Of a stretch of DNA of 64,000 bases, positions 2,392 to 57,785 are shown piece after piece. The position numbers and the translations under genes were made by a program. Below the pieces are notes generated by a model. It was not told where the DNA came from. It ran no database searches and was given only the letters and a program-made list of their open reading frames with translations. The DNA is from Escherichia phage AV116. Position 1 is the first letter of the stretch. The number at the start of each line of letters is the position of its first letter. The stretch lies in the sequence record OR352946.1. One strand, written 5' to 3'.

Positions 2392-2401
2392 TATGTATTC
2401 C

Positions 2402-6126: not shown

Positions 6127-6152
6127 GATGTTATCCTCTTTTAGATAGGACT

Positions 6153-6182: not shown

Positions 6183-6194
6183 ACTTTTATGAAA

Positions 6195-7855: not shown

Positions 7856-7875
7856 AATATTCTCTTCAGTAGATT

Positions 7876-7936
7876 CCTGAGGCACTATTACTAAAGACCA
7901 TATAATCTATCATCTTATGTGTAATAGTGCCTCAGG
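7876..7936. repeat. perfect 16-bp inverted repeat with 29-nt loop
   Basis: cctgaggcactattac ... gtaatagtgcctcagg; intergenic between glycosyltransferase stop and small gene RBS; no T-run. Confidence 0.7.
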
Positions 7937-7947
7937 CGATTCAGGAT

Positions 7948-12387: not shown

Positions 12388-12415
12388 AAAGGTATTCTAT
12401 CATCCGAAATCTAAA

Positions 12416-12436
12416 GCAAAAAGGGCCGAAGCCCTT
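12416..12436 (-). terminator. rho-independent terminator (UUCG hairpin then T5) before the Seg-like gene
   Basis: Plus aaaaagggcCGAAgccctt; minus hairpin followed by TTTTT. Confidence 0.5.
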
Positions 12437-12857
12437 ATTTAAATTTAATTTTCTGAAGTGCATCAATTGCAGCCAAACGCCCTTGTTCACTTTTAACTGT
12501 AACGACCACATCGCCTGATACGATCACCGAACCATCAACAAATTCTATAGAGCCTTTTTTGAAATCGACAGCTGTATCTGGTTCCGGAACTTCTTCAAAG
12601 AATTTAAATTCTGCACCATAAAGCAGAATATCACCTTGCATACTAATGATTGTACGTCCAGGTCCATCGGTTTCAGCGGCAATAATCGAAACGCCGTAAC
12701 CAATCATCTCTTCCACAATAAAATCTTTGGACAATAAAGTAGTATGCAGATTAGTATTAAGACGTTTACCAGTCGTATTAAGAATTCTCAAGAAATTATC
12801 TTCCTGTCCTTTGATAATACGATATTTCTTACCAACTTCAAAACCTTTAAAAGCCAT
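12435..12857 (-). CDS. hypothetical early protein (position of T4 goF)
   Basis: 140-aa ORF; synteny only. Confidence 0.45.
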   Translation of the reverse strand: MAFKGFEVGKKYRIIKGQEDNFLRILNTTGKRLNTNLHTTLLSKDFIVEEMIGYGVSIIAAETDGPGRTIISMQGDILLYGAEFKFFEEVPEPDTAVDFKKGSIEFVDGSVIVSGDVVVTVKSEQGRLAAIDALQKIKFK

Positions 12858-41334: not shown

Positions 41335-42021
41335 TTAGAAGTCGTGAGTAGAATCGGCTTCCATCGCAATAACATAACTTACTTGAGAGCTTTCAAACTT
41401 GGCTGCAACTTTATCACCAGCTCCCCACAACATTACTTTATAGTTACCTGGCTGGATTTTCATATTAGCCATATTGATTACGAAGTTAAAGTTGTTAGAA
41501 CCATCATAATCGGTAAGAGTCAAAGAATACTTAGGACGAGTTAGTCCTGAATCTTCAACTTTATTATAGCCATTGATAACAATTTTACCATCTTTATTTG
41601 TAATAGCAATTGTATCAATCTGAAGACCACGTGAAACTCGAAGCAATTGTTGAAGGTCTTCAGCTTTAATTTCAGTAATCACAGAAGCTACTGGGAATTG
41701 AATTGGCTTATTAGGAAAAACAATTGTGCTCTTGTCAGCGGCAGGCCAATAAACTGTGGAACGTGTATCTGCAATTTTAATATTGCCATCAGTGTGCATT
41801 GAAATTTCAGCATCATCAGACACTAGACTCAAAATGCTTAAGAAGCTATTCAAATCATAAAGTGCTACGTCAAAATCAATTTCATCAGAGATATTTGCTT
41901 CCGCATAAGTGGTGCCATTAACTGCACGAGTCATAATAAATTTACCTTGACTCAGCAGAATGCCAGAGTTAATAGAAGCGAAGTTTTTCAGAATATTTAC
42001 GGTTTCACGGCTAAGTTTCAT
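41335..42021 (-). CDS. 45: sliding clamp (gp45)
   Basis: 228 aa; MKLSRETVNILKNFASINSGI...ADSTHDF matches T4 gp45. Confidence 0.9.
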   Translation of the reverse strand: MKLSRETVNILKNFASINSGILLSQGKFIMTRAVNGTTYAEANISDEIDFDVALYDLNSFLSILSLVSDDAEISMHTDGNIKIADTRSTVYWPAADKSTIVFPNKPIQFPVASVITEIKAEDLQQLLRVSRGLQIDTIAITNKDGKIVINGYNKVEDSGLTRPKYSLTLTDYDGSNNFNFVINMANMKIQPGNYKVMLWGAGDKVAAKFESSQVSYVIAMEADSTHDF

Positions 42022-42917
42022 TTAGGTTTCCTATTAGCATAATAATTTGTCCAAGTCCGGATAGCACCTTGGTATGATTCATCATTAAAACCATGCTGAA
42101 TTGCATGTTTTCTAAATGTAATATAACTTGGTTTTCCTAAAGCAATCCACAATTCCTTTAATTTTTGTTCATGAAATATCCATGTACCTCTAGCTTTAGA
42201 TTTTCTGAATTTATCCTTAAATTCTTTGGTTGCATTTCTTTTCGAAGCTGCGATAGAGGCCTTTGCTCTATTTTCAGGTTTAGACCAATACAATGTTTTA
42301 GATATTTTTATTTTATCTTTAACATTAGGAGAATTCATTATATCTTTAAATTTTAAAGCAAAATCTCTATCGTTAAACATTTTTTTAGAACGAATAGAAA
42401 CTTTCTCTCTTCGTTCTTTGGTCCAATATGTTTTTTGAAATTCTCTAATTGCGTTTAAATGATTCTCCGACAATTTGCAATTTTTTCTAACACCGACGTA
42501 ATCTTCGTTTATTTCGTTTTTAGAAAGTTTTACTATTTTGCCTGTTTTTAAATTTTTATACGGTGCATATCCTTTAGCTGATATTCTAGACTTCTCGTTA
42601 GCATAAGCCTTATTAAAATATTTTTCATTTGAAACGGCTTTAACATTGAGTTGGAATAGTCTTTCTATTCTTCTAGGGTCTAATGTGGTTTCGCCTAAAA
42701 TTTTTACAGAATATTCGCCTTGGTCTATTAATCTGTTATATAAAGGAGAATACGAGGAATTAACACTACCGGTATATATTTTACCGGTAGAATCTTCAAT
42801 AATATCCTTTCCATTAAAATGACACGAAACTTTAGAACCTATATAATAACACGGGTATTCATTTTTAATCTCACGATTATAAAAGGTTATAAGATATATT
42901 AAATTCATAATTATCAA
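42018..42917 (-). CDS. GIY-YIG homing endonuclease (Seg-like)
   Basis: LIYLITFYNREIKNEYPCYYIGSKV; basic C-terminal DNA-binding region; AT-rich. Confidence 0.65.
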   Translation of the reverse strand: MIIMNLIYLITFYNREIKNEYPCYYIGSKVSCHFNGKDIIEDSTGKIYTGSVNSSYSPLYNRLIDQGEYSVKILGETTLDPRRIERLFQLNVKAVSNEKYFNKAYANEKSRISAKGYAPYKNLKTGKIVKLSKNEINEDYVGVRKNCKLSENHLNAIREFQKTYWTKERREKVSIRSKKMFNDRDFALKFKDIMNSPNVKDKIKISKTLYWSKPENRAKASIAASKRNATKEFKDKFRKSKARGTWIFHEQKLKELWIALGKPSYITFRKHAIQHGFNDESYQGAIRTWTNYYANRKPK

Positions 42918-43585: not shown

Positions 43586-45274
43586 TTATGAAACAGTCAT
43601 TACCGTAAATCGTCCAACTTTGCTCATTTGAAGATGTTGTCCATAAGCTTGTGGGTCATGGTCTCTGTGACTAATTATAAACACGTTTGCATCGGTTAGA
43701 GAGTTAAGAATTGTTGAAATAGCTTTAATACCTTCAGAATCAGTCGCGGAATCCATGACTTCGTCCATAATTAATGTATTGATTCTAACACCAGAGACCT
43801 TTTCAGCAATATCTCGCCATGTAAACAACAACGCGATATCGATACGTGCTTTTTCACCTTGACTAAATGAAGCATAACTGAACTCTTCACGACCACGTGA
43901 TTTTATAGATTCATTGAATTCTTCGTCAATAGAAAACACGTAATCAGCTTCCATGATTTTAAGATAATGGTTAATCTGCTTGTTGAACAGAGGCACATAT
44001 TTTTTAATGATAGCACCTTTAATACCAGAATCTTTTAACATATCTGTGATAATACCACGATGGTATTTTTCAAGAACGATATCCGATTTTGTTTTAATGA
44101 TTTTATCAAGTTCTTTTTGAAGCAAAGCTATCTCATCGGCATGGTCGATAAATTCCGCTGAGGCTTGTTCTATTGCAGCTTTAACTTTCTTAGCTTTATC
44201 AATAGTGGCAATCATTGCTTGTTTCTTGGTACGAATATCAGATGCAAGGTCCTGTTTAGTCTTAACATTAGCTCTATATTCGTCCACTAGGACACTCAGA
44301 TTATCTCTGTGGCAGGTAAGTTGCTCGAATGAGTGATTACATTCATGAAGCTTATCGGTAATCTTAGAGACAATAGGATCACCCTGGTGCAACTGTGATG
44401 CGCAAGTAGGACATGTACCGCCATCATGATACATCTTAATAACTTTGTTGTATGAGTCAATTTTAGATTTAATCAAGAATGCTTCTTGTCCTATCTTGTT
44501 GAATGCCTCAGTAGGGTCTTCATCAAGAACGATATTAAGTAGTCGCTCATTAGCTTCTTCGATTTCTGCTTTTAATGAACGAGCTTCTTTAGCTAGGTCG
44601 TCATACATATTCTGTAGACGCGCTACATTATCACCAGATAATTTCTTTTGACGTTCGATATTCTCGTTATAAATCTTAATTTGTTGGATAACACCATCTT
44701 TCTTGGCATCGAGAACTTGTCCCTGGGAATTAAGTTCTCGAACTTGAGACTTATTGATTTTATCCATTTCAGCGAGTGTGCCGACTTCTAAAAGGTCTTC
44801 GACAAGTTTTCTACGAGCAGGGGTGCTAAGAGCCATGAAAGGGGTATACCCTGCCGTCCCAAGCACAACGATCTGTTTAAAAGACGCGTATGACATTCCG
44901 ATGCTACGTTCAAATTCTTCTTGGAAGTCACGACTGCTGGCAGATTCATCAAGACGAACACCGTCAACGGAGATTTCGAAAATATTGGGCTTTTGGCCAC
45001 GTTTAATGAAGTATTTTTTATCATCGAATTCCATCCAAAGCTCAACTAAGAGCTCTTTCTTGTTCGTGCTATTAATGATTTGTCCTTTCTTAACATCACG
45101 AAATGGTTTACCGAAAAGTCCGAAAGTAATGGCTTCTAACATCGTAGATTTACCACCGCCATTTTTACCAGTGATTAATGTCTTTTGAACTTTATCTAAT
45201 TGGATATCAATAGGATTCCCACCTACCGACATGATGTTTTGATAACGAACACGATTTAATTTAAATGATTTCAT
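43586..45274 (-). CDS. 46: recombination endonuclease subunit gp46 (Rad50/SbcC-like)
   Basis: 562 aa; Walker A GKNGGGKST, zinc hook CPTC, coiled coil. Confidence 0.9.
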   Translation of the reverse strand: MKSFKLNRVRYQNIMSVGGNPIDIQLDKVQKTLITGKNGGGKSTMLEAITFGLFGKPFRDVKKGQIINSTNKKELLVELWMEFDDKKYFIKRGQKPNIFEISVDGVRLDESASSRDFQEEFERSIGMSYASFKQIVVLGTAGYTPFMALSTPARRKLVEDLLEVGTLAEMDKINKSQVRELNSQGQVLDAKKDGVIQQIKIYNENIERQKKLSGDNVARLQNMYDDLAKEARSLKAEIEEANERLLNIVLDEDPTEAFNKIGQEAFLIKSKIDSYNKVIKMYHDGGTCPTCASQLHQGDPIVSKITDKLHECNHSFEQLTCHRDNLSVLVDEYRANVKTKQDLASDIRTKKQAMIATIDKAKKVKAAIEQASAEFIDHADEIALLQKELDKIIKTKSDIVLEKYHRGIITDMLKDSGIKGAIIKKYVPLFNKQINHYLKIMEADYVFSIDEEFNESIKSRGREEFSYASFSQGEKARIDIALLFTWRDIAEKVSGVRINTLIMDEVMDSATDSEGIKAISTILNSLTDANVFIISHRDHDPQAYGQHLQMSKVGRFTVMTVS

Positions 45275-45525: not shown

Positions 45526-45754
45526 TACACGCTTCAGCCATTTTAAGAATAGAGCCAGGAGTATCGTTGTCCATTATATTAAAGCTAAATTCAATAGCCC
45601 AGTCGGTGCAGACATGAACTGCTTTAACTTCATTGCCTTCAACGCGTAATGGCTCAATCCAATACTTGATAGTGTTCTCGAATCCATCGTCATCTTTAAC
45701 GTCCATTTCAACTTCAAGCCTGAGTCCAGCATTGTTAAATTCATCTAAAGTCAT
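45497..45754 (-). CDS. hypothetical protein (46.2 position)
   Basis: 85-aa ORF. Confidence 0.45.
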   Translation of the reverse strand: MTLDEFNNAGLRLEVEMDVKDDDGFENTIKYWIEPLRVEGNEVKAVHVCTDWAIEFSFNIMDNDTPGSILKMAEACIEDAYNDED

Positions 45755-46773
45755 TGTGTTGCCTCAATATAAAGTTCGTTGGAATATTTGACCAGCGCTT
45801 CTCTGTCTTCATCTGAGATATCTGGAATCGCGTCAATATATTCTTTAATGATATCTTGAAGTGATTTAATCTCGATTTCCTGGTCGTCATCAGATTCAAC
45901 ACTGTTATCAACTTTAGAAACCATACGAAGAGAGTGAACTACTTTTTCAAGTTCAGATTCAAACTTAGTCAACTCTGAATCAATTTCTGATACTATAACA
46001 CGTACGGCTAGATTAGTATAATCAGAATAATTGATTTTGCCTTTAAATGGATAAGTGATTCGTCGATGCCATGTTGTTTCATTAGGAATAAATTCCATAC
46101 GTTCAACATCAGTGTCAAATACCCAGAATCCGCGCGGGTCGTTCTCATCACCTGCAGTAAGGGTCCATGGTGTCCCAATATATTTGACGTTAGCAGCTTC
46201 AGAGATTGTGTGGAAGTGGCCGGACCAGACTTGTTTATAGGTCTTTAAGAAATCAGGTTCAAGCCCATGAGACTTCATTCCTTTATAGAAATAGAAGCCA
46301 TTTAATTCCCAGTGCCCAACACAATACGCTGCAGAAGAAGTCTTGATGTGCTCTAAGATTTCACCTGTATTTTCTTCACACATCCATGGAATCAAATCAA
46401 TCAAGCACCCATCAAAATCTACTGTAGTTGGCTTATCATAAATTATTACGTTTTTACGATGGCTCAATAATTCTTGAACAGTGTTAGGATATAAGGTTGT
46501 TTTATAAAAGAGATCATGATTCCCAAGTATTGTATGGACTGTTATACCAGCGGCTTCCACCAAATCAAACATTTCACGCGTGAATTCCATACAACGTTGT
46601 GTGGTGTGGGCTCTGACATCAAATGTATCACCATATTGAATCCATGTTGTTATTCCATTTGCGACGGAATAGTCGATCATTTGTCTGAAACCGTCACGTT
46701 GTATAGCTTGAATCCAATCGTCGTCTTTTTTGACGCCTAGATGCAAATCGCCTATATTAAGTATTTTCATCAC
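45751..46773 (-). CDS. 47: recombination endonuclease subunit gp47 (Mre11/SbcD-like)
   Basis: 340 aa; phosphoesterase motifs GDLHLG, GNHD. Confidence 0.9.
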   Translation of the reverse strand: MMKILNIGDLHLGVKKDDDWIQAIQRDGFRQMIDYSVANGITTWIQYGDTFDVRAHTTQRCMEFTREMFDLVEAAGITVHTILGNHDLFYKTTLYPNTVQELLSHRKNVIIYDKPTTVDFDGCLIDLIPWMCEENTGEILEHIKTSSAAYCVGHWELNGFYFYKGMKSHGLEPDFLKTYKQVWSGHFHTISEAANVKYIGTPWTLTAGDENDPRGFWVFDTDVERMEFIPNETTWHRRITYPFKGKINYSDYTNLAVRVIVSEIDSELTKFESELEKVVHSLRMVSKVDNSVESDDDQEIEIKSLQDIIKEYIDAIPDISDEDREALVKYSNELYIEATQ

Positions 46774-47573
46774 ATACCTTTAAATTTGGAGTAAATTATA
46801 TTGTGGTACGATATATCAGGAAACCCTTTATCGACCGCAATTTTTCTAAACTTATTAGGACTTATTTTACCACACTCCATCCATAATGCAAACAACTCGT
46901 CAAAATGCTCATATGCTGGACCTCGACGAGCTTTTGACACAGCAGCACTTATGCGAGCCTTTTTCTCAGAATCAAGGTTTTTAAGAGAATTACTTATTTT
47001 ATTTTTTTGCTCTTCTGAATTGAAGGTGCCTTTTTCCCAGCCTAAAGGTTGGCTTCCTTCATGGAACATTTTTCTTGAAGTTCCATTGGTATACCATATT
47101 TTACCTTTATTGTGCCCTGATGCTTTATATTTTGGTGAGCGTCCTTTTATAAATCCTTCAGGTATAGTAGGAGCAAATGTTTGTTCAAGGGTTTCTGGGT
47201 TATACGAATGTATGTTATTTTTGGCGTTATGAGACCCATATAATGGGTGATTTTTACCAGAAACATCACGCCCAAAGAAACCAGTTGGTGATGCCAAAGA
47301 CATATTCATATACAAAGGATTTTTATGAGCTTGAACTCTAATTTGATAGTCCTTTTCCACCTTTAAAGCTTCTTCTCGTGTTGGATGTTCGCTCAAAATA
47401 CAAGAATCAAACAACGTAGGATTTTCTAAAAGTTCTTTGTTATAAATTTTACGATAGGCTTTAGATAGAATAGTACCATGATACCCGTTTAAATGTTTTT
47501 CTAAGCTAGTCGAACCTATGTAAAAAGGTGGTAGCTTATCTCCAGAATAAATTGTCAAATAGACTATAAACAT
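46770..47573 (-). CDS. GIY-YIG homing endonuclease with NUMOD3 repeats (Seg-like)
   Basis: 267 aa from ATG 47573 (MFIVYLTIYSGDKLPPFYIGSTS...); paralog of 11704..12387. Confidence 0.8.
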   Translation of the reverse strand: MFIVYLTIYSGDKLPPFYIGSTSLEKHLNGYHGTILSKAYRKIYNKELLENPTLFDSCILSEHPTREEALKVEKDYQIRVQAHKNPLYMNMSLASPTGFFGRDVSGKNHPLYGSHNAKNNIHSYNPETLEQTFAPTIPEGFIKGRSPKYKASGHNKGKIWYTNGTSRKMFHEGSQPLGWEKGTFNSEEQKNKISNSLKNLDSEKKARISAAVSKARRGPAYEHFDELFALWMECGKISPNKFRKIAVDKGFPDISYHNIIYSKFKGM

Positions 47574-47597
47574 ATATTTCTCCTTTGATTTAAGGAG

Positions 47598-47627
47598 ATT
47601 ATAACACGCCTTTAATGAAGCGTAAAC
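47598..47627 (-). promoter_or_regulatory. early promoter (GTTTAC-N18-TATAAT) for the Seg-like gene
   Basis: Minus GTTTACgcttcattaaaggcgtgtTATAAT then AAGGAGAA RBS. Confidence 0.5.
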
Positions 47628-47655
47628 AAAAAAAGGAAGCACTAGGCTTCCTTTT
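47628..47655 (-). terminator. rho-independent terminator (hairpin then T8)
   Basis: Plus aaaaaaaggaagcACTAGgcttcctttt. Confidence 0.6.
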
Positions 47656-47718
47656 GATATCGCCTAAGGCTTATAGGTCCTTAGAAATCTGGATGTTCAT
47701 CTTCAACAAAGCTAGTAT

Positions 47719-47934
47719 TCATCGCTGCCACCATTTTTTAAGTTGATGTGAATCTACCCATACCTTCGCTACAGGCTCAATATTAAAAATACCATCGGAC
47801 GTACGTCCAATCATTTTGTATTCGGTTTCAGATTGCTTGATACAAATATCACCATAAGAGCGAAGTCTAAAAGCGGCTCCTACTAGAAGCCGTTTAAACT
47901 TTGTTTGAACTAGCGCCATTAATGATGTCCTCAA
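47719..47934 (-). CDS. hypothetical protein
   Basis: 71-aa ORF; start uncertain. Confidence 0.35.
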   Translation of the reverse strand: MRTSLMALVQTKFKRLLVGAAFRLRSYGDICIKQSETEYKMIGRTSDGIFNIEPVAKVWVDSHQLKKWWQR

Positions 47935-48217
47935 TAGCCTGACGAGTAGTAACCCACTGGATTTTAATTAACTTGTCATTATATGGTTGTCTTAGAATAT
48001 CCCGAGATTTCTTAATAGCATATTCGTAAGCTTCGAAGTTGTTTTGAATTGCTGCTTCTTGAGCATGAGCATAAAGACGGTTTAGTTCAAAACGATTCTT
48101 TTTAAGAATCTTTTCGGATTTTTTACGTGCTTCAGCTTCATTTTTCTTTTGGATTTCTTGTAGCATTTTAGCTACTGCATCTTCTGCTTCTTTATTTTCA
48201 ATAATCTCGGTAGTCAT
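47894..48217 (-). CDS. hypothetical protein
   Basis: 107-aa ORF. Confidence 0.45.
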   Translation of the reverse strand: MTTEIIENKEAEDAVAKMLQEIQKKNEAEARKKSEKILKKNRFELNRLYAHAQEAAIQNNFEAYEYAIKKSRDILRQPYNDKLIKIQWVTTRQAIEDIINGASSNKV

Positions 48218-48218
48218 A

Positions 48219-48428
48219 TTATCTCATTAAATTAAAATAAAAACGTCCGTCCTCTTCAATACAGAACTCATACTCAACCGGAGTCCCATTTATCGAAAAT
48301 AACACGTCATGTGGGTTCAAAGGGTCGATGTCAAAATTAATTTTAAATTCACGACCCAACAGTTTTACCAAATAAGGGATTGCTTCGTCAAAAGGTTCTT
48401 CTAAGTAGTTAGAGATGTCAATTGTCAT
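48219..48428 (-). CDS. hypothetical protein
   Basis: About 69 aa from internal ATG; short overlap with gene 55 end. Confidence 0.4.
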
Positions 48429-48975
48429 CCTCATATAAAAAATCCAAACTAGGCGAATCGCTAACAACTTCCTTCTTTTCAGCCCCAGGAGCTTTATAAG
48501 CGGATTCTTCATAATGCGTCATTTTATCGTAGATGTCTTGAATAAACGTTTCATCTACCAACGCTACCATATCATCGTCATGACTGTCGTAGACATTATG
48601 AACGAAGTAACTATATTTCTTTGCAACTTCCTTACGTTCTTTTTTGATACGTTGGACAAAAGCATTAAAACAAGCTCGAGTTATGTATGCATGTGGGTTA
48701 TTGTACTTAGTTTCGTCGAAATTATGAAGTCCCTTAATAGAGGCTTCAATCCCATCTGCAATCATCTCCTGCTTCCAAGACTGGGTATATCCTGAAAAGT
48801 TGAAACGTTTGGACAGGCCTTCGGCGATAAGCATAATTGCTAAACCGATGGTATCATTCTGACGAATAATTTTGTTTGGGTCTTTATTATTTAAGAGCTC
48901 CTTTTTCCACTCGATTATAGCGGCGAGAAGCTCTTTATTATTCACATAGTTATTTTTAGGTTTTTGTTCAGTCAT
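48418..48975 (-). CDS. 55: late-transcription sigma factor gp55
   Basis: 185 aa from ATG 48975 ([24 protein letters not shown]...[12 protein letters not shown]); T4 gp55 pattern. Confidence 0.85.
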
Positions 48976-49130
48976 AAGTACCTCTTGGCTCAATTCATAG
49001 GTCTATTATATCATAATATTTAGAGACCTATCTTAAAGCACGAGATACTATAAAAGATACATAACTTTTATAAAGTTGTCGACTTAAAATTCACCAATCT
49101 TTTCTTCAGTTATACTGATTCGAGTTAATT

Positions 49131-49358
49131 TCATTCTAGTTCCTTTGCTGCTTCAAGAGCAGCATCCAGCGAATCAAATTGGTCAACGAAATCAATATTT
49201 AACGCATCGTCAACCGTAGCATATAACCACCATTGTTTGAATTCGTATTCAAGAATAAATCCAGGACCTTCAATCTGAGGAAGACCTAGGCTATTTGTAC
49301 CAACTTCGTAACCAGCTAGACGCAGGTCATTAATCAAAGTTTCTGTTAATACGCTCAT
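49131..49358 (-). CDS. hypothetical acidic protein
   Basis: 75-aa ORF. Confidence 0.45.
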   Translation of the reverse strand: MSVLTETLINDLRLAGYEVGTNSLGLPQIEGPGFILEYEFKQWWLYATVDDALNIDFVDQFDSLDAALEAAKELE

Positions 49359-49687
49359 TTTACCGCCTTAACAATTTTCAGGTCAACGAATTTTTTCTTA
49401 CGTTGATTTTTCATACGACGGATAGTCTTTTCAGAGATTTCATGTTTCTGATAAGCTTTAGATTCGACACCAAATGCAGCAACGTCAAATTCAGAAAGAA
49501 TGTATTGCACTAGAATTTCACGAATAGAGTTACGTCCAATTTTCTGCTCATGTTTTTGCATGATTTCATAGAGACGATATTCCCAGGCGTCAAGAACTTG
49601 AGGAGTAACAATATTGCCGGATTCCAGAAGAGCAACAACTTTATCGAAAGCGAAAGAATTAACTACGTTTTTGATTTTAGTAGACAT
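49355..49687 (-). CDS. hypothetical protein
   Basis: 110 aa from ATG 49687; ORF-track start lies in promoter. Confidence 0.45.
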   Translation of the reverse strand: MSTKIKNVVNSFAFDKVVALLESGNIVTPQVLDAWEYRLYEIMQKHEQKIGRNSIREILVQYILSEFDVAAFGVESKAYQKHEISEKTIRRMKNQRKKKFVDLKIVKAVK

Positions 49688-49724
49688 ATTATTTTCCTCG
49701 GTTATTTTATTATCCAATGAGAGC

Positions 49725-49753
49725 ATTATACTCTGCTCTCAAGAGTTTGTAAA
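49725..49753 (-). promoter_or_regulatory. early promoter (copy 2 of exact 35-bp duplicate)
   Basis: Same 35 bp as near 5372. Confidence 0.45.
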
Positions 49754-49756
49754 TCG

Positions 49757-49957
49757 TTATCCGAACTTTTTAGCGCCTTTCCAGCCTTCGTACATAACTG
49801 CACAAGTCAGTAGCACAGCGTGTTGGCATTCTTTGTATTTGTAAATCCAGAACCAGCGTAAAAAGTCTTCATCCTCAACACCGTTGAGTTTCATGTTGGC
49901 GAAGAATTCAGCTCGTTCTTCGCGAAGTTTTTGAGATAACATAGATTCAGGATTCAT
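49757..49957 (-). CDS. hypothetical protein
   Basis: Small ORF, start trimmed to internal ATG. Confidence 0.35.
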   Translation of the reverse strand: MNPESMLSQKLREERAEFFANMKLNGVEDEDFLRWFWIYKYKECQHAVLLTCAVMYEGWKGAKKFG

Positions 49958-50088
49958 TTTGTGTTCCACGCCCCGTTTTCATCGATGAACTTAATCCAGT
50001 CATTTACAGACCATTTAGTTGTATCACCCTTTGGATTAACATTTAAAGTATATAATCCCTGCTTAAAAAGCATTCGTTTGATATTCAT
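49954..50088 (-). CDS. hypothetical small protein
   Basis: 44 aa from ATG 50088 preceded by GAGGAAA RBS. Confidence 0.3.
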   Translation of the reverse strand: MNIKRMLFKQGLYTLNVNPKGDTTKWSVNDWIKFIDENGAWNTK

Positions 50089-50095
50089 AATTTCC

Positions 50096-50389
50096 TCAAC
50101 TGTAACGATAACATTCGTTAGCTTTACGTTTGGCTTCAGTATGAGAAGTATTATAATCATACTCTTCTTTACTGTAAACATCTTTTTTCAACTTACGAAC
50201 TTCTTTGCGGAGTTGTCGATTCATTTCGTTCTTGACTTCAGAATCAACGCCTTTCATACGTTTCCATTTATCTGAGCGGAAGATGTTTTCAACCATGTCT
50301 TTGTGGCTAACACCGTCAGGAGCTTTACGTTTACCAAAATAGTCGTAATCACGAACTTTCAAATCTTTACGACGATACGTTTTACCCAT
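50096..50389 (-). CDS. hypothetical basic protein
   Basis: About 97 aa. Confidence 0.4.
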   Translation of the reverse strand: MGKTYRRKDLKVRDYDYFGKRKAPDGVSHKDMVENIFRSDKWKRMKGVDSEVKNEMNRQLRKEVRKLKKDVYSKEEYDYNTSHTEAKRKANECYRYS

Positions 50390-50396
50390 AAGTACC

Positions 50397-50645
50397 TCAG
50401 AGGTTGATTGATACAATGCGTTTGATAAAATTCACTTCACTTACTGAAAGGTCTTTAAGACCGATTGATTCTAAACGCTGAATAAAAGTCAACATTGGGA
50501 TATAGTCCCATTGTGTTTTAGTCGTTTGATAAGTACGGACGCCATTAGCAATTTCAACATGCAAATCGGAAATGGTAATGAATACCGGTCGCTCGTCATT
50601 AACTTTAAGGGTTAGAACAACTTTCTTTGAATCTAAACTAATCAC
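50397..50645 (-). CDS. hypothetical protein
   Basis: 82-aa ORF. Confidence 0.45.
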   Translation of the reverse strand: MISLDSKKVVLTLKVNDERPVFITISDLHVEIANGVRTYQTTKTQWDYIPMLTFIQRLESIGLKDLSVSEVNFIKRIVSINL

Positions 50646-50944
50646 GGCTTAATTTCCTTCGCAATTGAACAGAAGATACCACGGTCACAAAGCATTTCAC
50701 CAATTTCTGGATATTTGATTGAACGGTACCAAACATCCAGGCTTGAAACTCTGGTTATCCGTACTGCATTACCGTTGACAGAATAGTACTGGTCAACCTT
50801 AATTTCTTTATCTTCAATTGTCATTTTATTTTCCTCTATAGTAGATGGTTTAATCTTAACACATCTATCGAGGATGTAAACTGTTTTATGAAAATATTTT
50901 TGATTTGAGAGGGGCACAAGGAGATAGTGAAGTGAAGATTCCAA
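50642..50944 (-). CDS. hypothetical protein
   Basis: 100-aa ORF. Confidence 0.45.
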   Translation of the reverse strand: MESSLHYLLVPLSNQKYFHKTVYILDRCVKIKPSTIEENKMTIEDKEIKVDQYYSVNGNAVRITRVSSLDVWYRSIKYPEIGEMLCDRGIFCSIAKEIKP

Positions 50945-50989
50945 TGGATTATATTAGAAATGAGATAAAGAAGACCAGGCGGCACCTGG

Positions 50990-51298
50990 TCAATCTTCTA
51001 TGATATCAGAGTCGTATCCTAATGAAATCAAGGACTTTTTAAACTCTGCAATATTCTTTTGTTTCTTATCATTTAAAAATATGACAGGATAACGAATATT
51101 AAGTGAAGTGAATCCTGCACGTTTAGCAAGAGATACGATTAAAGGACGGTCATATTCAATCTTACCATTATTAGTGAGGACTTTATAAAATGTATAAGGA
51201 GCATTGAGCTCCTTTAAAAGTTTTGTAACAGTATAACATCCTGGACAACGTCCAACTTCTTCAGGGATGCCATAAATTTCAATCTTGTTGTGTTCCAC
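50990..51298 (-). CDS. nrdH: glutaredoxin-like protein NrdH
   Basis: 102 aa; CPGC redox motif. Confidence 0.7.
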   Translation of the reverse strand: MEHNKIEIYGIPEEVGRCPGCYTVTKLLKELNAPYTFYKVLTNNGKIEYDRPLIVSLAKRAGFTSLNIRYPVIFLNDKKQKNIAEFKKSLISLGYDSDIIED

Positions 51299-51300
51299 AA

Positions 51301-51513
51301 TTATTCCTTGCCAAGAACAGAATTCAGTTTATTAGTAATTTTGTCCAAACGTTCATTGAATTCGCTGGAGGATAAACCCTTTTCCGGAGAAATTAAACTA
51401 ATCACGAAAAATACACCAGTAAAAGGAATAAGAAAAATAGCTCCAACTGCCATAAACAAAAAGAACGTTACAGTTGTAAGAAAATCAGCTAAACCTTTAC
51501 GAAATTTGTACAT
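51301..51513 (-). CDS. small membrane protein
   Basis: 70 aa, one or two TM segments. Confidence 0.45.
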   Translation of the reverse strand: MYKFRKGLADFLTTVTFFLFMAVGAIFLIPFTGVFFVISLISPEKGLSSSEFNERLDKITNKLNSVLGKE

Positions 51514-51623
51514 ATTTACCCTTAATTAACTAAGAATTGATAATCATTAAACTATATTGCGAATAAAATTCTGGACCAAAACGAAAAATCATATCATTTA
51601 TAGTATCCATAATGTAATTCAAT

Positions 51624-52094
51624 TTAATCATGTTTCCACACCCCATCGGTATTTGACCAAAGTCGCTGATTATCTGATCCTCGCCACAGTTTTTTGGTCG
51701 GAAGATTTTTCTCATACTTCCCATCAATAATAACATCAACATATTTAAGCATTTCTAGTTGTTTAATATCTTCAAACTTATATCCTGTCCACAACCAAAT
51801 GCTTTTATTGGGATAAAGATTTTTTACTGTTTGAACAATGCAATGAATAACATCTCGGTTATCAGGATAGAGAGGGTCACCTCCGGTTATAGTTAATCCT
51901 TCTATATAATCATTATTCAAACATTCAATTAATTGTTCTAGTGTTTCACCAGTGAATGGAATACCATTTCTAGCATTCCATGTTGATTTATTATAACACC
52001 CTTCGCATTTATGCAAACAACCTGTAACGAAAAGAACGACCCTACAACCAGGGCCATTCACAAAATCGCAAGGATAAAATCTATCATAATTCAT
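51624..52094 (-). CDS. nrdG: anaerobic ribonucleotide reductase activating protein NrdG (radical SAM)
   Basis: 156 aa; CLHKCEGC cluster motif. Confidence 0.85.
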   Translation of the reverse strand: MNYDRFYPCDFVNGPGCRVVLFVTGCLHKCEGCYNKSTWNARNGIPFTGETLEQLIECLNNDYIEGLTITGGDPLYPDNRDVIHCIVQTVKNLYPNKSIWLWTGYKFEDIKQLEMLKYVDVIIDGKYEKNLPTKKLWRGSDNQRLWSNTDGVWKHD

Positions 52095-53908
52095 TGGTGT
52101 TTAACCCTATGCATGATTTCTTTATTTTTACCGAGATTAAATCCGCGTTCGTTCGGATTTCCCAAATAGCCGCATGTTCTTCTTATGGTGTTCATCTTTT
52201 TAGGATCAGTTTCTCCGCAAACTGAACAAACAAATCCATTTTCGGTAGGAGTCATTTCATGAGTACTTCCACATGTAAAACATTTATCTACTGGCATATT
52301 AACACCAAAATAATCTAAATGTTGTGCAGCATAATCCCAGACAGCCTCAAGTCCTTTTAAGTTATTTTTCATATCAGGAAGTTCAACATAAGAAATGTGA
52401 CCACCTGTCGCAATGAAATGATACGGCGCTTCACGAGAAATCTTTTCAAACGGAGTAGTATTTTCTTCTACTGAAACGTGGAAACTGTTAGTGTACCAGC
52501 CTTTATCGGTAACATCTTTTACACTTCCATATTTTTCTGTATCAAGTTTACAGAAGCGATAACAAAGGTTTTCAGCAGGAGTAGAATACAAACTAAAAGC
52601 AAAACCAGTTCTTTCAGTCCACTGTTTAAGATGAGCATTCATTTTAGTTAAAATTTCTTGTCCAATATCACGACCGACAAGAATATTCAATTCATGAATA
52701 CCGATGTATCCTAAAGACACTGAACTTCTACCGTTTTTAAATAGCTCAATTATATCGTCATCAGGTTTAAGACGAACCCCGAATGCACCTTCTTGGTAAA
52801 GAATAGGAGCAACAGTCGCTTTAACTCCTTTTAAGGAACTAATTCTACACATCAAAGCTTCAAAACACAGGTCCATTCGTTCATTGAATAATTCAACAAA
52901 TTTCTGTTCATTGAACTGTGTTCCAATATAAGAATCTAATGCGATACGAGGAAGATTCAGTGTTACAACGCCGAGATTATTACGACCGTCAAGAATTTCA
53001 TTTCCAGTTGAATCTTTCCATACGCTCAAGAAACTACGGCAACCCATCGGAGAAACTGGAACTGAAGAACCGGTAATAGCTTTATTATTCTTAACTGAAA
53101 TAATGTCAGGATACATTCTTTTGCTTGCACATTCTAACGCAAGTTGTTTAATATCATAGTTTGGATCATCTTTATAAAGATTAACACCTTCTTCAAAAAA
53201 CATAACAAGCTTAGGGAAAATAGGAGTTATTCCATCACGTCCAAGGCCTTTAATGCGGTTTTTAAGAATTGCCTTCTGAATCATTCGTTCAGTCCAGTCA
53301 GTTCCCGTACCAAATGTAATTGTCACAAAAGGCGTTTGTCCGTTTGAACTAAAGAGAGTGTTTACTTCATATTCATAAGCTTGGAATGCATCGTATACGT
53401 CTTTTTCTGTTTTAGATTGAGCATAATTCAGAATGTCTGGTATTTGCCATTTTTCTGCATCTTCAACATGTTTAGCGTATGTGCGTTTAACATAAGGAGA
53501 AAGAACTTTATCGACATTCGCAAATGTAGTTCCGCCATACTGGTGTGAAGCAACTTGTGCAGTAATTTGTGCCATAATTGCAGTAGCAACGCCAATAGAT
53601 TTAGGCGTTTCAATTTGAGCATTGCCTAATTTAAATCCATTCTCAAGCATTCCTTTTAAATCTACTAAACAGCAATTAGTAAAAGGCAATGATATACTAT
53701 AATCTAAATCGTGAAAATGAATTAATCCGACATTATGAGCATTTACAATATGGCTCGGAAGAATACTACAAGCGATATGTTTAGAAACAATACCGGCCAT
53801 TAAATCTCTTTTTGTTGGAAAGACACGAGAATCTTTGTTGGCATTTTCGGTATTTAATTCTTTATCTTTATTTGAAATAAAATTTAAAACATCTTTCTCT
53901 AAAGACAT
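52091..53908 (-). CDS. nrdD: anaerobic ribonucleoside-triphosphate reductase NrdD (class III), intron-less
   Basis: 605 aa; glycyl-radical motif RTCGYLG; C-terminal zinc site. Confidence 0.95.
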   Translation of the reverse strand: MSLEKDVLNFISNKDKELNTENANKDSRVFPTKRDLMAGIVSKHIACSILPSHIVNAHNVGLIHFHDLDYSISLPFTNCCLVDLKGMLENGFKLGNAQIETPKSIGVATAIMAQITAQVASHQYGGTTFANVDKVLSPYVKRTYAKHVEDAEKWQIPDILNYAQSKTEKDVYDAFQAYEYEVNTLFSSNGQTPFVTITFGTGTDWTERMIQKAILKNRIKGLGRDGITPIFPKLVMFFEEGVNLYKDDPNYDIKQLALECASKRMYPDIISVKNNKAITGSSVPVSPMGCRSFLSVWKDSTGNEILDGRNNLGVVTLNLPRIALDSYIGTQFNEQKFVELFNERMDLCFEALMCRISSLKGVKATVAPILYQEGAFGVRLKPDDDIIELFKNGRSSVSLGYIGIHELNILVGRDIGQEILTKMNAHLKQWTERTGFAFSLYSTPAENLCYRFCKLDTEKYGSVKDVTDKGWYTNSFHVSVEENTTPFEKISREAPYHFIATGGHISYVELPDMKNNLKGLEAVWDYAAQHLDYFGVNMPVDKCFTCGSTHEMTPTENGFVCSVCGETDPKKMNTIRRTCGYLGNPNERGFNLGKNKEIMHRVKHQ

Positions 53909-54720
53909 AATTCTAATTTATCCTTTTGAAATTCTTCGTCTAAATATGGGTTCCAACCCATTTTAAACCTTTTGATGAAATTATCAATTCTAAATTTCGG
54001 TAAATTTAACTCCGCAAAAATAGATGATTTACTTTTAAAATCTGGACCTAAATAATCATATAAAATTTCTGCGTATTTTAACCATAATATATAAGTACCA
54101 GATTTAATTGCGTTCGGAGTTTTCCAAGGTTTTACACCATACATCGGATTTCCACTTCCTTTATGCCTGATAGAAGATGAAATTCCAATTTTAATTTTAG
54201 CTTCCTTTGTATGCGAAAATCCACGATGCGGATTTTCTTTCCAGTATTTTTTAGCAGCTTCTGATATTTTCTTTCTGGCTAAATTAGTATGATGCTTTCC
54301 ATAAAATCCATGATTTTTGCCTTTATTACGATTTCTTTTAATCATGGTTATTGATTGCTTTTCTCTAGTTTCTTTAGAAGGAGAAATACCATATGTCGTA
54401 AATTTGCCATCAGCATATGCTAAATTAAAATACTCTTTATTCCATACATCTTTTTCTATATTCTTTTGAAATTCAGCTTCAATGCTAGTTATTTGTTCAT
54501 CTCCGACTAATTGAAAATATAATATTTCAACTTTCGGCGTTTCTTTCAATAAGGCTTTTTGAAATTCGGAAGATGACGAAGACGAATAATAAAATTTACC
54601 ATTTTTATCAATAATATTCGTTCCATCAAAAGTGCAATTGGTTTTACTTCCAATGTAATAATATGGTGGGGTTTTAGCATTAATTCTATTAATAAATGAT
54701 AGTTTATATACTACATTCAT
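53899..54720 (-). CDS. GIY-YIG homing endonuclease (free-standing)
   Basis: VVYKLSFINRINAKTPPYYYIGSKT; NPMYGVKP NUMOD-like repeat. Confidence 0.75.
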   Translation of the reverse strand: MNVVYKLSFINRINAKTPPYYYIGSKTNCTFDGTNIIDKNGKFYYSSSSSSEFQKALLKETPKVEILYFQLVGDEQITSIEAEFQKNIEKDVWNKEYFNLAYADGKFTTYGISPSKETREKQSITMIKRNRNKGKNHGFYGKHHTNLARKKISEAAKKYWKENPHRGFSHTKEAKIKIGISSSIRHKGSGNPMYGVKPWKTPNAIKSGTYILWLKYAEILYDYLGPDFKSKSSIFAELNLPKFRIDNFIKRFKMGWNPYLDEEFQKDKLELCL

Positions 54721-55190
54721 TTTAAACTCTTTCTAAGCTGCTTTTTGAATGAAGCTATTAATTGTGTTTTAGTATCAGATTCAGTATATTCAAATCCTCT
54801 TTGAAGCATCTCAGCCATCATTTCCTCTTTACCTAGTCTTGAGAACTCTTTAGTTTTGTCTGGAACAAAATTAGGATGGATATTATTATCAGAATAATCT
54901 TGTTTCAAATAAGCAAGAAGAGCTTCAAGCCATTCTAAGTAGTCAACGTTTTGACCTTTCAAACCGGAACGGTTGAACTTATGCTTCATTTGACCTTCTG
55001 CTGCGTTGCACAGATTACAGAGTAATCCACGAACTCTACCGGCTTTTGGCCCGTTTAATTCATGGTCGTGGTCAAGATGGTTACCTTGAACATCAGGGTC
55101 TAATTCACGGTGGCAAATAGGACACTTACCGTTCTGTGCATCATAAAATTTTTGTTTTTCTTCTTTATATTTTGCGCCTGATAATAACAT
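54717..55190 (-). CDS. 49: endonuclease VII (gp49, Holliday junction resolvase)
   Basis: 157 aa; CPICHRELD...HLDHDHELNGPKAGRVRGLLCNLCN matches T4 endo VII. Confidence 0.9.
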   Translation of the reverse strand: MLLSGAKYKEEKQKFYDAQNGKCPICHRELDPDVQGNHLDHDHELNGPKAGRVRGLLCNLCNAAEGQMKHKFNRSGLKGQNVDYLEWLEALLAYLKQDYSDNNIHPNFVPDKTKEFSRLGKEEMMAEMLQRGFEYTESDTKTQLIASFKKQLRKSLK

Positions 55191-55229
55191 GATAAACCCT
55201 TACCTTAAATAGATAAGGGTATTTATAAT

Positions 55230-55427
55230 TTAGTAAACGTTATAAAAGTTACGATGAGAACGTTTAGCTTTGCGAAGCTGACGTTTAGTTGGTCGAACCG
55301 TAAATGGTCGTCCGGAGAAAAAATTCGGATCGGTTTTAATAAGCAAATACCAATCATGCTTGCCATTTTTTAATAAACGGTACAATAATTTAACTTGCAT
55401 AATAATCTCTTCCCATTTCCAAATCAA
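55230..55427 (-). CDS. hypothetical basic protein
   Basis: 65-aa ORF. Confidence 0.35.
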   Translation of the reverse strand: MIWKWEEIIMQVKLLYRLLKNGKHDWYLLIKTDPNFFSGRPFTVRPTKRQLRKAKRSHRNFYNVY

Positions 55428-55528
55428 TCATATCGTTTACTGTAGGTTCATCATAACACGTTTCTTCGTCGTTGTAAACTGTTTCGACGTCTGGCTCGAC
55501 AGTTTCCCATCGAGCCGAATACCATGGT

Positions 55529-55864
55529 TTAACCCCGGAGTTTATTGAGCTCTTCATAATCAATCCAGGATTCTAGCCCTGACGGCAGGTCACATTCAAT
55601 GTTCCACAGAAGCTCTTCAATGGCTTGCAGGCGATTATATTCTTCAACGGTAATGGTAACCATTGGTTTTGGCTTTTTAACCATCATGTCATTCATCAGA
55701 ACGTACAGGTCTTCACAAACAGCCGGGTCGTCCCATGTCCATACTTCAGCATCTCGAACCAATGAAGTCGGAATCGAATTTAAAACTTCAAGCTTAGTAG
55801 GAGCATCAGGGCCGAGAAGAGTTGCTACAAATTTATATGCTTTGGCGAAATCAATATCGTTCAT
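55529..55864 (-). CDS. hypothetical acidic protein
   Basis: 111-aa ORF. Confidence 0.45.
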   Translation of the reverse strand: MNDIDFAKAYKFVATLLGPDAPTKLEVLNSIPTSLVRDAEVWTWDDPAVCEDLYVLMNDMMVKKPKPMVTITVEEYNRLQAIEELLWNIECDLPSGLESWIDYEELNKLRG

Positions 55865-56124
55865 TTAAAATATTCTCGCAGTTGGTCAAATCCACCAATG
55901 TGACTTCCGTCAGGAGCAAACACTTGAGGCATAGTCAATCCAACTTGTGATTCGCGTCCAAGCTTAACAAGAAGCTCAGTAATTTTCTCATCGTCGAACA
56001 CACCTTTTTCTGGCATAACATTAATGAATTCGAACGGCTGTTTCTTAACAGTCAGCAATCGTTTCGCATTATCACAATAAATGCATTTATGAATAGTAGA
56101 GTCATACCCGTACACTTTAAACAT
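55861..56124 (-). CDS. nrdC: thioredoxin/glutaredoxin NrdC
   Basis: 87 aa from ATG 56124; CIYC active site. Confidence 0.75.
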   Translation of the reverse strand: MFKVYGYDSTIHKCIYCDNAKRLLTVKKQPFEFINVMPEKGVFDDEKITELLVKLGRESQVGLTMPQVFAPDGSHIGGFDQLREYFK

Positions 56125-56530
56125 TATTTTTCCTTTCATCGATTAAATATGCAACGCCAAATACAATACATGTAATAAAACCTGTGATACAGATAGAAAC
56201 CAACAACACCGTACCAAAGAACCAAATCAAGTTATCTTTAGTAGTTTGTTTGATATCCATCTCACGAATTTCTATAGCTATCGTATCACCTTTATTCAGA
56301 AGCGTATAAAACGAAGGTGATACATGCCTGTCAAAAACTCGTCCTTGCTCATCTTTATAGACTGCAATAAATTCTAATTTAGAATATTTTCCTGTAGATT
56401 GACCTGAAATTAATTCCACTACCTCCACAGGAATTACTTTAGTTTCCATGTAAGTATTCTGGCTGTTCCAAATGAATGGAATGATGGCAAAAACTAAAGC
56501 TGCGATAAAACAACGAAGGCTATATCTCAT
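56117..56530 (-). CDS. membrane protein
   Basis: 137 aa; N-terminal and C-terminal TM helices. Confidence 0.5.
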   Translation of the reverse strand: MRYSLRCFIAALVFAIIPFIWNSQNTYMETKVIPVEVVELISGQSTGKYSKLEFIAVYKDEQGRVFDRHVSPSFYTLLNKGDTIAIEIREMDIKQTTKDNLIWFFGTVLLVSICITGFITCIVFGVAYLIDERKNNV

Positions 56531-56835
56531 TATAATGTTCTCTCAAATTTGTGGAAGCATTTACGGCATTTCAATTTCAAGTTATCGGTGGTCCAGTTAA
56601 CCAGTTGGACTTGGATAGTTCCACATTCCGGGCATGGATGTTTTGCTGCCGATTTGGCAGCATTTTCACGTCGTTCAACCATTTTCATGATTTCGTTCCA
56701 TGCCGGAGGAACGAACTCTTCTTCACCGTGGATTTTATCTTGCTGAACAAATTCAATATTTGAACTATCGTCAATAAACTTAACCAAGCGGTGATTAGTG
56801 TTCATATCAATATCCTCTAAAAGACGTAGTTTCAT
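56530..56835 (-). CDS. zinc-ribbon protein
   Basis: 101 aa; CPECG...CRKC. Confidence 0.5.
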   Translation of the reverse strand: MKLRLLEDIDMNTNHRLVKFIDDSSNIEFVQQDKIHGEEEFVPPAWNEIMKMVERRENAAKSAAKHPCPECGTIQVQLVNWTTDNLKLKCRKCFHKFERTL

Positions 56836-57785
56836 TATAAAACCTCAATGGCATTTCGTAAACCATCCGCTTTCGCATTCAGAGCTTTTAACGATTTAGT
56901 TTGTTCTGCAATCTGGGCTTCGACTTCTTTAAGACGAGATTTGAGATATTCGCGTTCTTCTCTTAAGTTATCAACTTTTTCTGCTTTAGGTTCTTTAATA
57001 GTCTTAAGTTTATACCCGTTAGGGGACTTCAGCTTAATTCGGGTACGAGAACTGTATAACATTGAACCGTTATCTTCGGATTCGTCGAACGTTTCAACAA
57101 CATCCATAGTCTCTAACAATGTAATAAGTTTATAAGACAACGAACGAACGGTTTTGTTATGCTTATTAATTTCTTCGGCTTTCATGGTACCGAGATTACG
57201 TGAGTAGTAATAAGGAACCTGGATATCAATTGACAATGATGCGTTACCATTACCAGTTGGTTTGAATACTGCAGTAACCCAATCTTTAACATGAACTTTA
57301 TTTGTACGACCATCACCGCCTGTGAATAATTTACGAGAATGTTTAAAAAGCATATTCACTTGGTTATTGAATTCACAAGCAAATTTATCAGCAAATTTAG
57401 TTTCAGGAATGGTAGATAACCAATCAGCTAAATGAGTCTTTTTAACATCGTTAATAATAGTAAATTCAACCAAATCGGTTTTAGATGTCACAGATTTAAT
57501 AAAGCTCGGCTTCATAAAGTTTTTAATGTTATCGCGAGCTACAGTAGAAGATAATAAACGAGAACGTTTGAACCATTGAAGCAGTGTCCCTAATGATTGA
57601 GAATACGCATTCTGAGTATCTTTACAGATATGATTTTCTTGGCCTGTGTATGTACCAAAATCGCGAAGAATACCACTTACTACATCTCGGTGTGGAACAT
57701 CAAATCCTAGTGCACCAGAAGCGCGCTGAGCATGAATGTTAGCGATAAGACCGGCAAAGTATTCAATGTAATGTGAACGTGTCAT
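56835..57785 (-). CDS. hypothetical protein with C-terminal coiled coil
   Basis: 316-aa ORF. Confidence 0.55.
   Translation of the reverse strand: MTRSHYIEYFAGLIANIHAQRASGALGFDVPHRDVVSGILRDFGTYTGQENHICKDTQNAYSQSLGTLLQWFKRSRLLSSTVARDNIKNFMKPSFIKSVTSKTDLVEFTIINDVKKTHLADWLSTIPETKFADKFACEFNNQVNMLFKHSRKLFTGGDGRTNKVHVKDWVTAVFKPTGNGNASLSIDIQVPYYYSRNLGTMKAEEINKHNKTVRSLSYKLITLLETMDVVETFDESEDNGSMLYSSRTRIKLKSPNGYKLKTIKEPKAEKVDNLREEREYLKSRLKEVEAQIAEQTKSLKALNAKADGLRNAIEVL

Follow-up and report, generated by a model that had tools for sequence, protein, structure and literature searches.

What is the open reading frame (ORF) that sits directly in front of gene 47 in Escherichia phage AV116, how did it get there, and how might it be expressed? 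The window analysed here, a stretch of 64,000 nucleotides of sequence record OR352946.1, belongs to a T4-like phage of the genus Mosigvirus (RB69 group), and all genes of the region in question, the ORF included, are read from its minus strand. A preliminary description of this DNA had called the ORF a Seg-like gene of the GIY-YIG family, and both its coordinates and this assignment stand. Going by sequence and modelled fold, the 267 codons are an intact gene for a free-standing homing endonuclease of the Seg type. Our overall reading, to which we give a probability of roughly 0.72, is that of an imported Seg homing endonuclease at gene 47, which has spread by homing and is expressed from an early-type promoter under the control of a hairpin. 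The gene and its two domains are placed as follows:

46770..47573, minus strand: seg-like ORF of 267 amino acids, from the ATG at 47573..47571 to the stop codon TGA at 46772..46770
47289..47573, minus strand: N-terminal GIY-YIG nuclease domain, amino acids 1-95
46773..47021, minus strand: C-terminal helical domain, amino acids 185-267, putatively a DNA-binding helix-turn-helix (HTH)

The gene occupies an intergenic slot between the a-gt.3/a-gt.2 stump and gene 47, outside any intron or intein. The nature of its product is revealed by profile, residues and fold. An alignment of 39 diverse homologues, when compared by hhalign with T4 SegA-G, I-TevI and I-TevII, matched with a probability of 97.4% (E 1.2e-11). 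Invariant in these homologues are Y5, Y9, G11, Y18, G20, Y31, G33, E47, E73 and N90. The pairing places IVY (3-5) and YIG (18-20) opposite GIY and YVG of I-TevI (Y6, Y17-G19), E73 opposite the catalytic E75 and N90 opposite N90 of the metal site. The AlphaFold (AF2) model has a mean predicted local distance difference test score (pLDDT) of 80.8, with values of at least 90 for amino acids 1-90 that drop towards amino acid 95. The predicted order of the N-terminal elements, beta-beta-alpha-alpha-beta-alpha, is that of the GIY-YIG fold, and the top three Foldseek matches in the Protein Data Bank (PDB) were the catalytic domain of I-TevI (probability 0.91-0.98, target template modelling score about 0.6).

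YIG is followed by NGYHGT (29-34), with Y31 and G33 invariant. This motif is the counterpart of DDGYMGSG in T4 SegA-E, which makes the protein Seg-type rather than I-TevI-type. The C-terminal domain is HTH-like and similar to the C-terminus of SegA; the linker between the domains is poorly ordered and contains a weak, sub-threshold match to NUMOD3. The closest T4 proteins are SegG (N-domain, 31% identity over 120 amino acids, 1e-6), SegE and the SegA C-terminus. Because the best T4 match reaches 31% only, and in the N-domain only, the gene is, on sequence grounds, a distinct and unnamed Seg lineage.

The annotation of the family is misleading. PHROGs assigns the protein to phrog_10820, “HNH endonuclease” (2.5e-75), and more distantly to phrog_314, “homing endonuclease”; NCBIfam returned no match with the protein. 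We rejected the HNH label, since there is no HNH match in Pfam and since fold and motifs are those of GIY-YIG enzymes; as judged from sequence and model, “HNH” in PHROG 10820 and in several GenBank records is a misannotation. The label is found on the records of LF82-4, QL01, HMGUkp2, teqhad (RefSeq) and other phages. In IME08 the homologue is unannotated and the gene 47 call is over-extended into it. The records of Escherichia phages AV109, AV114, AV118 and AV115, which are 99.8-99.9% identical to the window over 45700..49000, just read “hypothetical protein”.

Could the protein have lost its nuclease activity? It might be a domesticated descendant of a Seg enzyme that has become immobile, for instance a DNA-binding regulator of the 47-46 unit. 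Here several points weigh against our reading. The score for Pfam GIY-YIG (PF01541), 17.8 bits, stays below the gathering score of 22.6; of the 39 family members, 10 match this model at E<=0.01 (best 2.2e-5), and it is the profile-profile comparison that decides. PDB sequence searches, with the single protein as well as with the family profile, retrieved no GIY-YIG chain. There is no invariant arginine at the position of R27 of I-TevI: position 26 is often, though not always, K or R, and the nearly invariant R66 lies away from the R27 position. The experimentally active T4 enzymes SegA-E also lack the R27 helix segment in the alignment made here. Many Tequatrovirus orthologues are truncated to about 207 amino acids, without the C-terminal domain, and parts of the family may accordingly be decaying. 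Cleavage activity is a prediction from sequence and fold. A regulatory role would also not be without parallel, as I-TevI doubles as an autorepressor (PMC2988022). Yet the catalytic Glu, the Asn and both Tyr are invariant in the 39 homologues, and the copy in the window, unlike the Tequatrovirus copies of about 207 amino acids, is full-length, with both domains confidently folded in the model. The sharply bordered foreign tract described below points to recent transfer. Finally, an operator of the I-TevI kind, i.e., a copy of the seg-less allele in the seg promoter, was looked for and rejected: the best match, 15/20, is no better than those of shuffled sequences (13-16). A domesticated protein thus appears quite unlikely.

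How the gene arrived can be read from a comparison with Mosigvirus APCEc01, which lacks it. The neighbours concerned are, in the order of transcription:

48993..48418, minus strand: gene 55, first in transcription order
between gene 55 and the next ORF but one, minus strand: a-gt.5-like ORF, followed by the a-gt.4-like ORF
48217..47894, minus strand: a-gt.4-like ORF
47934..47719, minus strand: a-gt.3-like ORF, 71 amino acids (phrog_1648 at 3e-29)
47700..47681, minus strand: 5'-end remnant of an a-gt.2-like ORF, ATGAACATCCAGATTTCTAA, 20 nt, the remainder deleted
46770..45751, minus strand: gene 47 (Mre11/SbcD-like nuclease subunit), ATG at 46770..46768, the constant downstream neighbour
46371..46770, minus strand: initial 400 bp of gene 47, foreign and probably co-converted

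From 49051 to 47888 the window is 99-100% identical to APCEc01. The segment 47887..46771 cannot be aligned, and the first 400 bp of gene 47 (46770..46371) show 72, 65, 55 and 77% identity in successive bins of 100 bp; from 46370 onward identity is back at 96-100%. A foreign tract of 1.5 kb, 47887..46371, is therefore flanked by sequence that is about 100% identical to that of seg-less relatives. It comprises the a-gt.3 allele, the a-gt.2 stump, a terminator, a promoter, seg and the first 400 bp of gene 47. The a-gt.3 allele is Dhakavirus-like (79-87% identity) and not alignable to the Mosigvirus allele. The a-gt.2 stump, ATGAACATCCAGATTTCTAA, was identified by comparison with ATGACGAACATCCCGACTTCTGAAAA... 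of LF82-4 and NRG-P0074, and the metagenomic locus L014 carries a comparable one. For the imported 5' part of gene 47, close relatives are confined to the AV phages; LF82-4 comes next at 78%, and further matches are in Serratia and Erwinia phages, which also possess a seg homologue.

The comparison of sequences shows that seg was acquired together with flanking DNA and, in view of the sharp borders of the tract, recently. A foreign block around an endonuclease gene that reaches into the neighbouring gene is the trace left by homing with co-conversion (PMC2988022), and a block centred on seg and reaching into gene 47 is the signature to be expected of this process. In a mixed infection, the enzyme would cut the seg-less allele, most probably in the 5' part of gene 47; repair off the seg-containing genome would then copy seg and with it the flanking, cleavage-resistant sequence. 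Of course, T4-like genomes are mosaic in many places, and other indels distinguish the window from APCEc01. On these grounds, the pattern might go back to vertical descent and repeated losses, or to ordinary homologous recombination between phages, without any homing. Such processes do not, however, readily explain that the foreign tract is centred on seg, nor that it enters an essential and conserved gene, where identity falls to 55% and recovers to 99% within 100 bp. The family is, moreover, tied to gene 47 across genera with differing upstream neighbours, which is the fixed-neighbour pattern described for SegF, SegG and SegE (PMC2988022). We regard an origin without homing as very unlikely.

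The homing reading has its own difficulty in gp47. Its phosphoesterase motifs GD.H.G, GD.FD and GNHD are retained in the window. An N-terminal subtype (…FDVRAHTTQRCMEF…) is common to the window and the seg-containing loci LF82-4, L011 and L014, while seg-less phages have …FDVRKAITH(K/R)TMEF…. The seg-containing subclades L012 and SHP1, however, have the N-terminus of the seg-less type, so seg is not everywhere linked to a resistant allele of gene 47, which again counts against us. Mapping of a target site from gene 47 alleles with and without seg was tried and given up: RAHTTQ versus RKAITH tracks the closest seg alleles, not all of them, and since the split is not common to all seg-containing loci, no target site is claimed.

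The address of the family is nevertheless remarkably constant. By tblastn it is found in 205 phage records, 86 of them with an identity of at least 60% (82 between 60 and 80%, 4 at >=99%). At each locus examined, gene 47 comes directly after the orthologue, whereas what precedes the latter varies:

LF82-4 (Mosigvirus): an a-gt.2-like ORF
teqhad (Tequatrovirus): a-gt and 47.1
IME08 and SHP1 (Dhakavirus): a-gt.2
HMGUkp2 (Klebsiella phage): other small ORFs
L011, L012 and L014 (metagenomic contigs): varying neighbours

Orthologues at gene 47 thus occur in at least three named genera and in unclassified Klebsiella and metagenomic phages. Close relatives mostly do without: among 767 matching records this allele is present in 4 only, and of the about 150 records that are at least 95% identical over the flanks, most lack seg and cover just 58% of the query, the middle being missing. 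In T4, homing endonucleases and neighbouring genes form the pairs SegF/56, SegG/32, SegE/uvsW and SegA/uvsX (PMC2988022, Table 1). By analogy with these pairs, gene 47 is the probable target gene of the enzyme. The same review of the T4 endonucleases lists none at the gene 47 locus (PMC2988022), and searches of the literature did not turn up a description of one at this place.

It had also been proposed that seg occupies the position of the alpha-glucosyltransferase gene a-gt of T4. This does not hold. The T4 order is a-gt.2, mobB, a-gt, terminator/promoter, 47.1, 47, and in teqhad seg is found between 47.1 and 47, at exactly the point at which gene 47 begins in T4. A replacement of a-gt by seg was rejected for the same reason: teqhad has both, and Mosigviruses lack a-gt at this place with seg as well as without it.

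How is the gene expressed? The predicted elements around it are:

47655..47628, minus strand: terminator-like hairpin and T run
47627..47598, minus strand: early-type promoter, GTTTAC-N18-TATAAT
47598..47579, minus strand: second, small hairpin that pairs the Shine-Dalgarno sequence
47585..47580, minus strand: Shine-Dalgarno sequence AAGGAG
46824..46795, minus strand: candidate promoter GTTTCC-N18-TATAAT inside the 3' end of seg, from a motif scan

The terminator hairpin reads AAAAGGAAGC-CUAGU-GCUUCCUUUU. Its stem is built from GGAAGC (47651..47646) and GCTTCC (47640..47635) plus A4:U4, which adds up to 10 pairs around a loop of 5 nt; the fold has -13.8 kcal/mol (z -4.1), and none of 200 shuffled sequences was as stable. 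The site conforms to what is expected of a rho-independent terminator, a GC-rich stem-loop with a U tract, and is predicted to act as such. The hairpin and its position had been described correctly; the T run consists of 7 T (47634..47628), not 8, before a G and TTT. The promoter, too, had been recognised exactly: GTTTAC at 47627..47622, a spacer of 18 nt with a TGn extended -10, and TATAAT at 47603..47598. In the window, GTTTAC-N17/18-TATAAT occurs 4 times, always on the minus (early) strand, where 0.02 exact matches are expected, so the pattern is not due to chance. It corresponds to the early-type sigma-70 consensus of T4 and is predicted to be a promoter of this class. It can also be read as a near MotA box, CGCTTCA-N12-TATAAT, and by this reading could work at both early and middle times. 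A late promoter (TATAAATA) was not found upstream of seg; one site with a single mismatch lies within the ORF at 47310.

Terminator and promoter had been interpreted as the gene's own, insulating cassette. The elements exist, as said; that they are private is a different matter. In related phages the junction in front of gene 47 looks as follows:

T4: terminator AAAGGGC-TTCG-GCCCTTT, promoter AGCTTTA-N12-TATAAT, then 47.1
seg-less Mosigviruses: terminator GGAACTC-TTCG-GAGTTCC-T7, promoter TGCTTTA-N11-TAGAAT, then gene 47
Dhakaviruses: a comparable terminator, promoter TGCTTTC-N11-TAAAAT, then the seg homologue

Boxes of the type TGCTTTA or AGCTTTA at 11-13 nt from the -10 fit the consensus of MotA-dependent middle promoters. 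Since the order of terminator and promoter is kept in T4, Dhakaviruses and seg-less Mosigviruses alike, the layout is, by sequence comparison, ancestral, and seg slotted into an existing regulatory junction. In LF82-4 and L011 the resident terminator is followed by GTTTAC-N18-TATAGT, a hairpin and the seg homologue, the MotA-box promoter being replaced. The orthologues of Tequatrovirus and of Klebsiella phages lack a dedicated promoter.

An import of terminator and promoter together with seg, as a self-contained unit, is not without arguments. The terminator of the window differs in sequence from the resident one of Mosigviruses and lies inside the foreign tract; the segment of terminator and promoter has no blastn relative outside the AV phages; and both seg alleles of Mosigviruses come with the GTTTAC-type promoter in place of the resident MotA-box promoter. 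The ancestral layout, the resident terminator retained in LF82-4 and the promoter-less orthologues all argue the other way. So does the downstream side: a scan of the minus strand for terminator-like sites found nothing between seg and gene 47, and the TGA of seg runs into the ATG of gene 47 as TGATG (46772..46768). With this overlap and without a terminator behind it, seg is the first cistron of the 47-46 unit rather than an insulated gene. The private cassette is therefore unlikely; it seems, from the alleles compared, that in Mosigviruses the promoter type alone travels with seg.

As for gene 47, it would be served by read-through from the seg promoter, perhaps also by the candidate promoter inside the 3' end of seg, at a distance of about 25 nt from the ATG of gene 47. 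The TATAAT of this candidate falls in the H(N/S)IIY codons, which are conserved in four seg alleles. The homologue of Dhakavirus SHP1 has AGCTTTA-N12-TAGAAT embedded at the equivalent place. Embedded promoters are known from segG, segA, segE, mobB and mobC (PMC2988022).

The second hairpin, UCUCCUU-AAAUCA-AAGGAGA (47598..47579), has -8.6 kcal/mol (z -3.9). The left arm begins on the last T of TATAAT; the Shine-Dalgarno sequence forms the right arm. This geometry suggests a gate. Transcripts from the early-type promoter, by its sequence a strong one and possibly also MotA-dependent, would start about 7 nt past the -10, near 47591; they would lack the left arm of the hairpin and leave the GGAG of the Shine-Dalgarno sequence free. 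In transcripts that come from upstream and pass the terminator, the hairpin would be complete and the Shine-Dalgarno sequence hence occluded. A promoter inside an occluding hairpin is documented for I-TevI, I-TevII, I-TevIII, segB and Aeh1 mobE, there with late promoters (PMC2988022). The regulatory reading as a whole (early-type promoter, gating hairpin, a unit shared with gene 47) is a plausible prediction.

Some caution is indicated. In LF82-4 and L011 a hairpin of other sequence (UUUCUAU/AUGGAGA) occupies the same position. When the arms were compared manually, one two-sided change (U-A to A-U) and two changes from G-C to G-U were seen. With two independent sequences, the conservation of the hairpin is suggestive only, and start site, efficiency of termination and hairpin gating are all predictions; these points also lessen our confidence. 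Searches of Rfam gave sub-threshold matches only, to preQ1-II (25 bits versus a gathering score of 47) and to a Brucella sRNA, both due to chance.

The Shine-Dalgarno sequence of seg (47580..47585) contains GGAG. In early mRNAs this is the motif cut by the T4 endoribonuclease RegB, in part according to the annotation of T4 regB.

If the promoter is active, its early type would be the sole departure from the endonuclease genes of T4 as described, which are expressed at middle or late times only (PMC2988022). One may go further and imagine that seg is made within the first minutes of infection, by virtue of early promoter and hairpin gating, that gene 47 is its target, and that the 47-46 unit has been re-timed. 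This extended version we consider rather unlikely. If true, the recombination nuclease encoded by 47-46 would be re-timed by the loss of the ancestral MotA-dependent promoter, and the target would be the gene of the very Mre11-like nuclease that processes double-strand breaks.

What is, then, the significance of the gene? The element is real and, for T4-like phages, ordinary in kind; it is unnamed and often mislabelled. With an intact gene, a sharply bordered import of 1.5 kb and seg-less sister genomes, it is a well-delimited natural example of Seg homing, at a gene that is absent from the characterised targets of T4 endonucleases. The family is present in dozens of T4-like phages, and its widespread annotation as “HNH endonuclease” or “hypothetical protein” can be corrected. 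The locus also shows how such an element fits the transcription of its host: behind a conserved junction, with the promoter swapped, and probably with an embedded promoter for the gene downstream.

The window contains four seg-like genes. The other three are:

12387..11704, minus strand: paralogue of 227 amino acids, directly upstream of gene 39 (topoisomerase, 11726..9888)
42917..42018, minus strand: third seg-like ORF, about 296-299 amino acids, between rpbA and gene 45
54720..53899, minus strand: fourth seg-like ORF, 273 amino acids, between gene 49 (endonuclease VII) and nrdD

The first of these had rightly been called a paralogue: it is 38% identical to the gene 47 seg over 260 amino acids (E 1e-42) and shares with it the motif YLTIY.GDKLPPFYIGST and the C-terminal domain. 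Within 11704..12460, which takes in the gene itself, it is headed by AAGGGC-TTCG-GCCCTT as terminator and by TGCTTTA-N12-TAGAAT, a perfect MotA-box promoter. Just 6 nt separate the -10 of this promoter from the ATG, so middle transcripts would begin at or after the start codon. The homologues at gene 47 of Dhakaviruses (L006, L007) are arranged in the same way. The third and fourth ORF had not been mentioned before, and neither had the Shine-Dalgarno hairpin and the TGATG overlap. The N-domain of the third is 38% identical to T4 SegG (E 7e-15) and 26% to the gene 47 seg; its stop adjoins the start of gene 45, and in APCEc01, which lacks it, rpbA and gene 45 are adjacent. The fourth has a SegG-like N-terminus, MNVVYKLSF...PPYYYIGSK, and belongs to a segment of about 870 bp that is missing in APCEc01.

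Further irregularities were seen nearby. At the 3' end of gene 46 an isolated patch of 100 bp (43671..43770) is 63% identical to APCEc01, with 92-100% on both sides. In the related phage NRG-P0074, a gene labelled ‘homing endonuclease’ lies between 46.1 and 46 (L003, 4535..5389). Between genes 55 and nrdC, window positions 49051..57266 differ from APCEc01 (L009) by several indels of small ORFs; segments of L009 without counterpart in the window are at about 1417..1777, 2363..2799, 5903..6225, 7772..8066 and 8765..8949.

It remains to compare the gene 47 seg with known systems. Like mobB of T4, which lies between a-gt.2 and a-gt, it encodes a free-standing homing endonuclease and is located in the interval between genes 55 and 47. 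MobB, however, belongs to the HNH family, and its slot is upstream of a-gt and of the terminator-promoter junction; mobB was absent among the matches listed (60 of 205 records) in the tblastn search with the seg protein. The paralogue at gene 39, whose orthologues include the ‘GIY-YIG homing endonuclease’ of Klebsiella phage Mexia, likewise has a module of terminator and promoter on one side and an essential gene on the other. It differs by two clear NUMOD3 repeats in the linker and by its perfect MotA-box middle promoter, which comes without leader and without Shine-Dalgarno hairpin.

With I-TevI the gene shares the principle of a ribosome-binding site that is hidden in a hairpin on long transcripts, a hairpin that the transcripts of the gene's own promoter cannot form. 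In contrast to I-TevI, it is not intron-encoded; the releasing promoter of I-TevI is late, whereas that of the gene 47 seg is of the early sigma-70 type, possibly also middle, and no operator-like copy of a target was found in it. I-TevI has the R27 helix, while the gene 47 seg has the Seg-type GY(H/M)G(S/T) instead.

The closest parallel is SegG, the best T4 match to the N-domain (31%, 120 amino acids). SegG lies between genes 32 and 59 and cuts gene 32 of T2. Both genes are free-standing, oriented like their neighbours and placed directly upstream of an essential gene of replication or recombination, and in both a co-conversion tract, here a probable one, extends into the adjacent gene (for SegG, PMC2988022, reference 39). 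The differences are equally clear. The identity of about 30% is confined to the N-domain, the C-domain here resembles that of SegA and SegE, and the locus is gene 47. SegG is a promoter-less cassette on a polycistronic message, with promoters of gene 32 embedded in it (PMC2988022); the gene 47 seg, in contrast, has an early-type promoter, predicted as it is, directly upstream.

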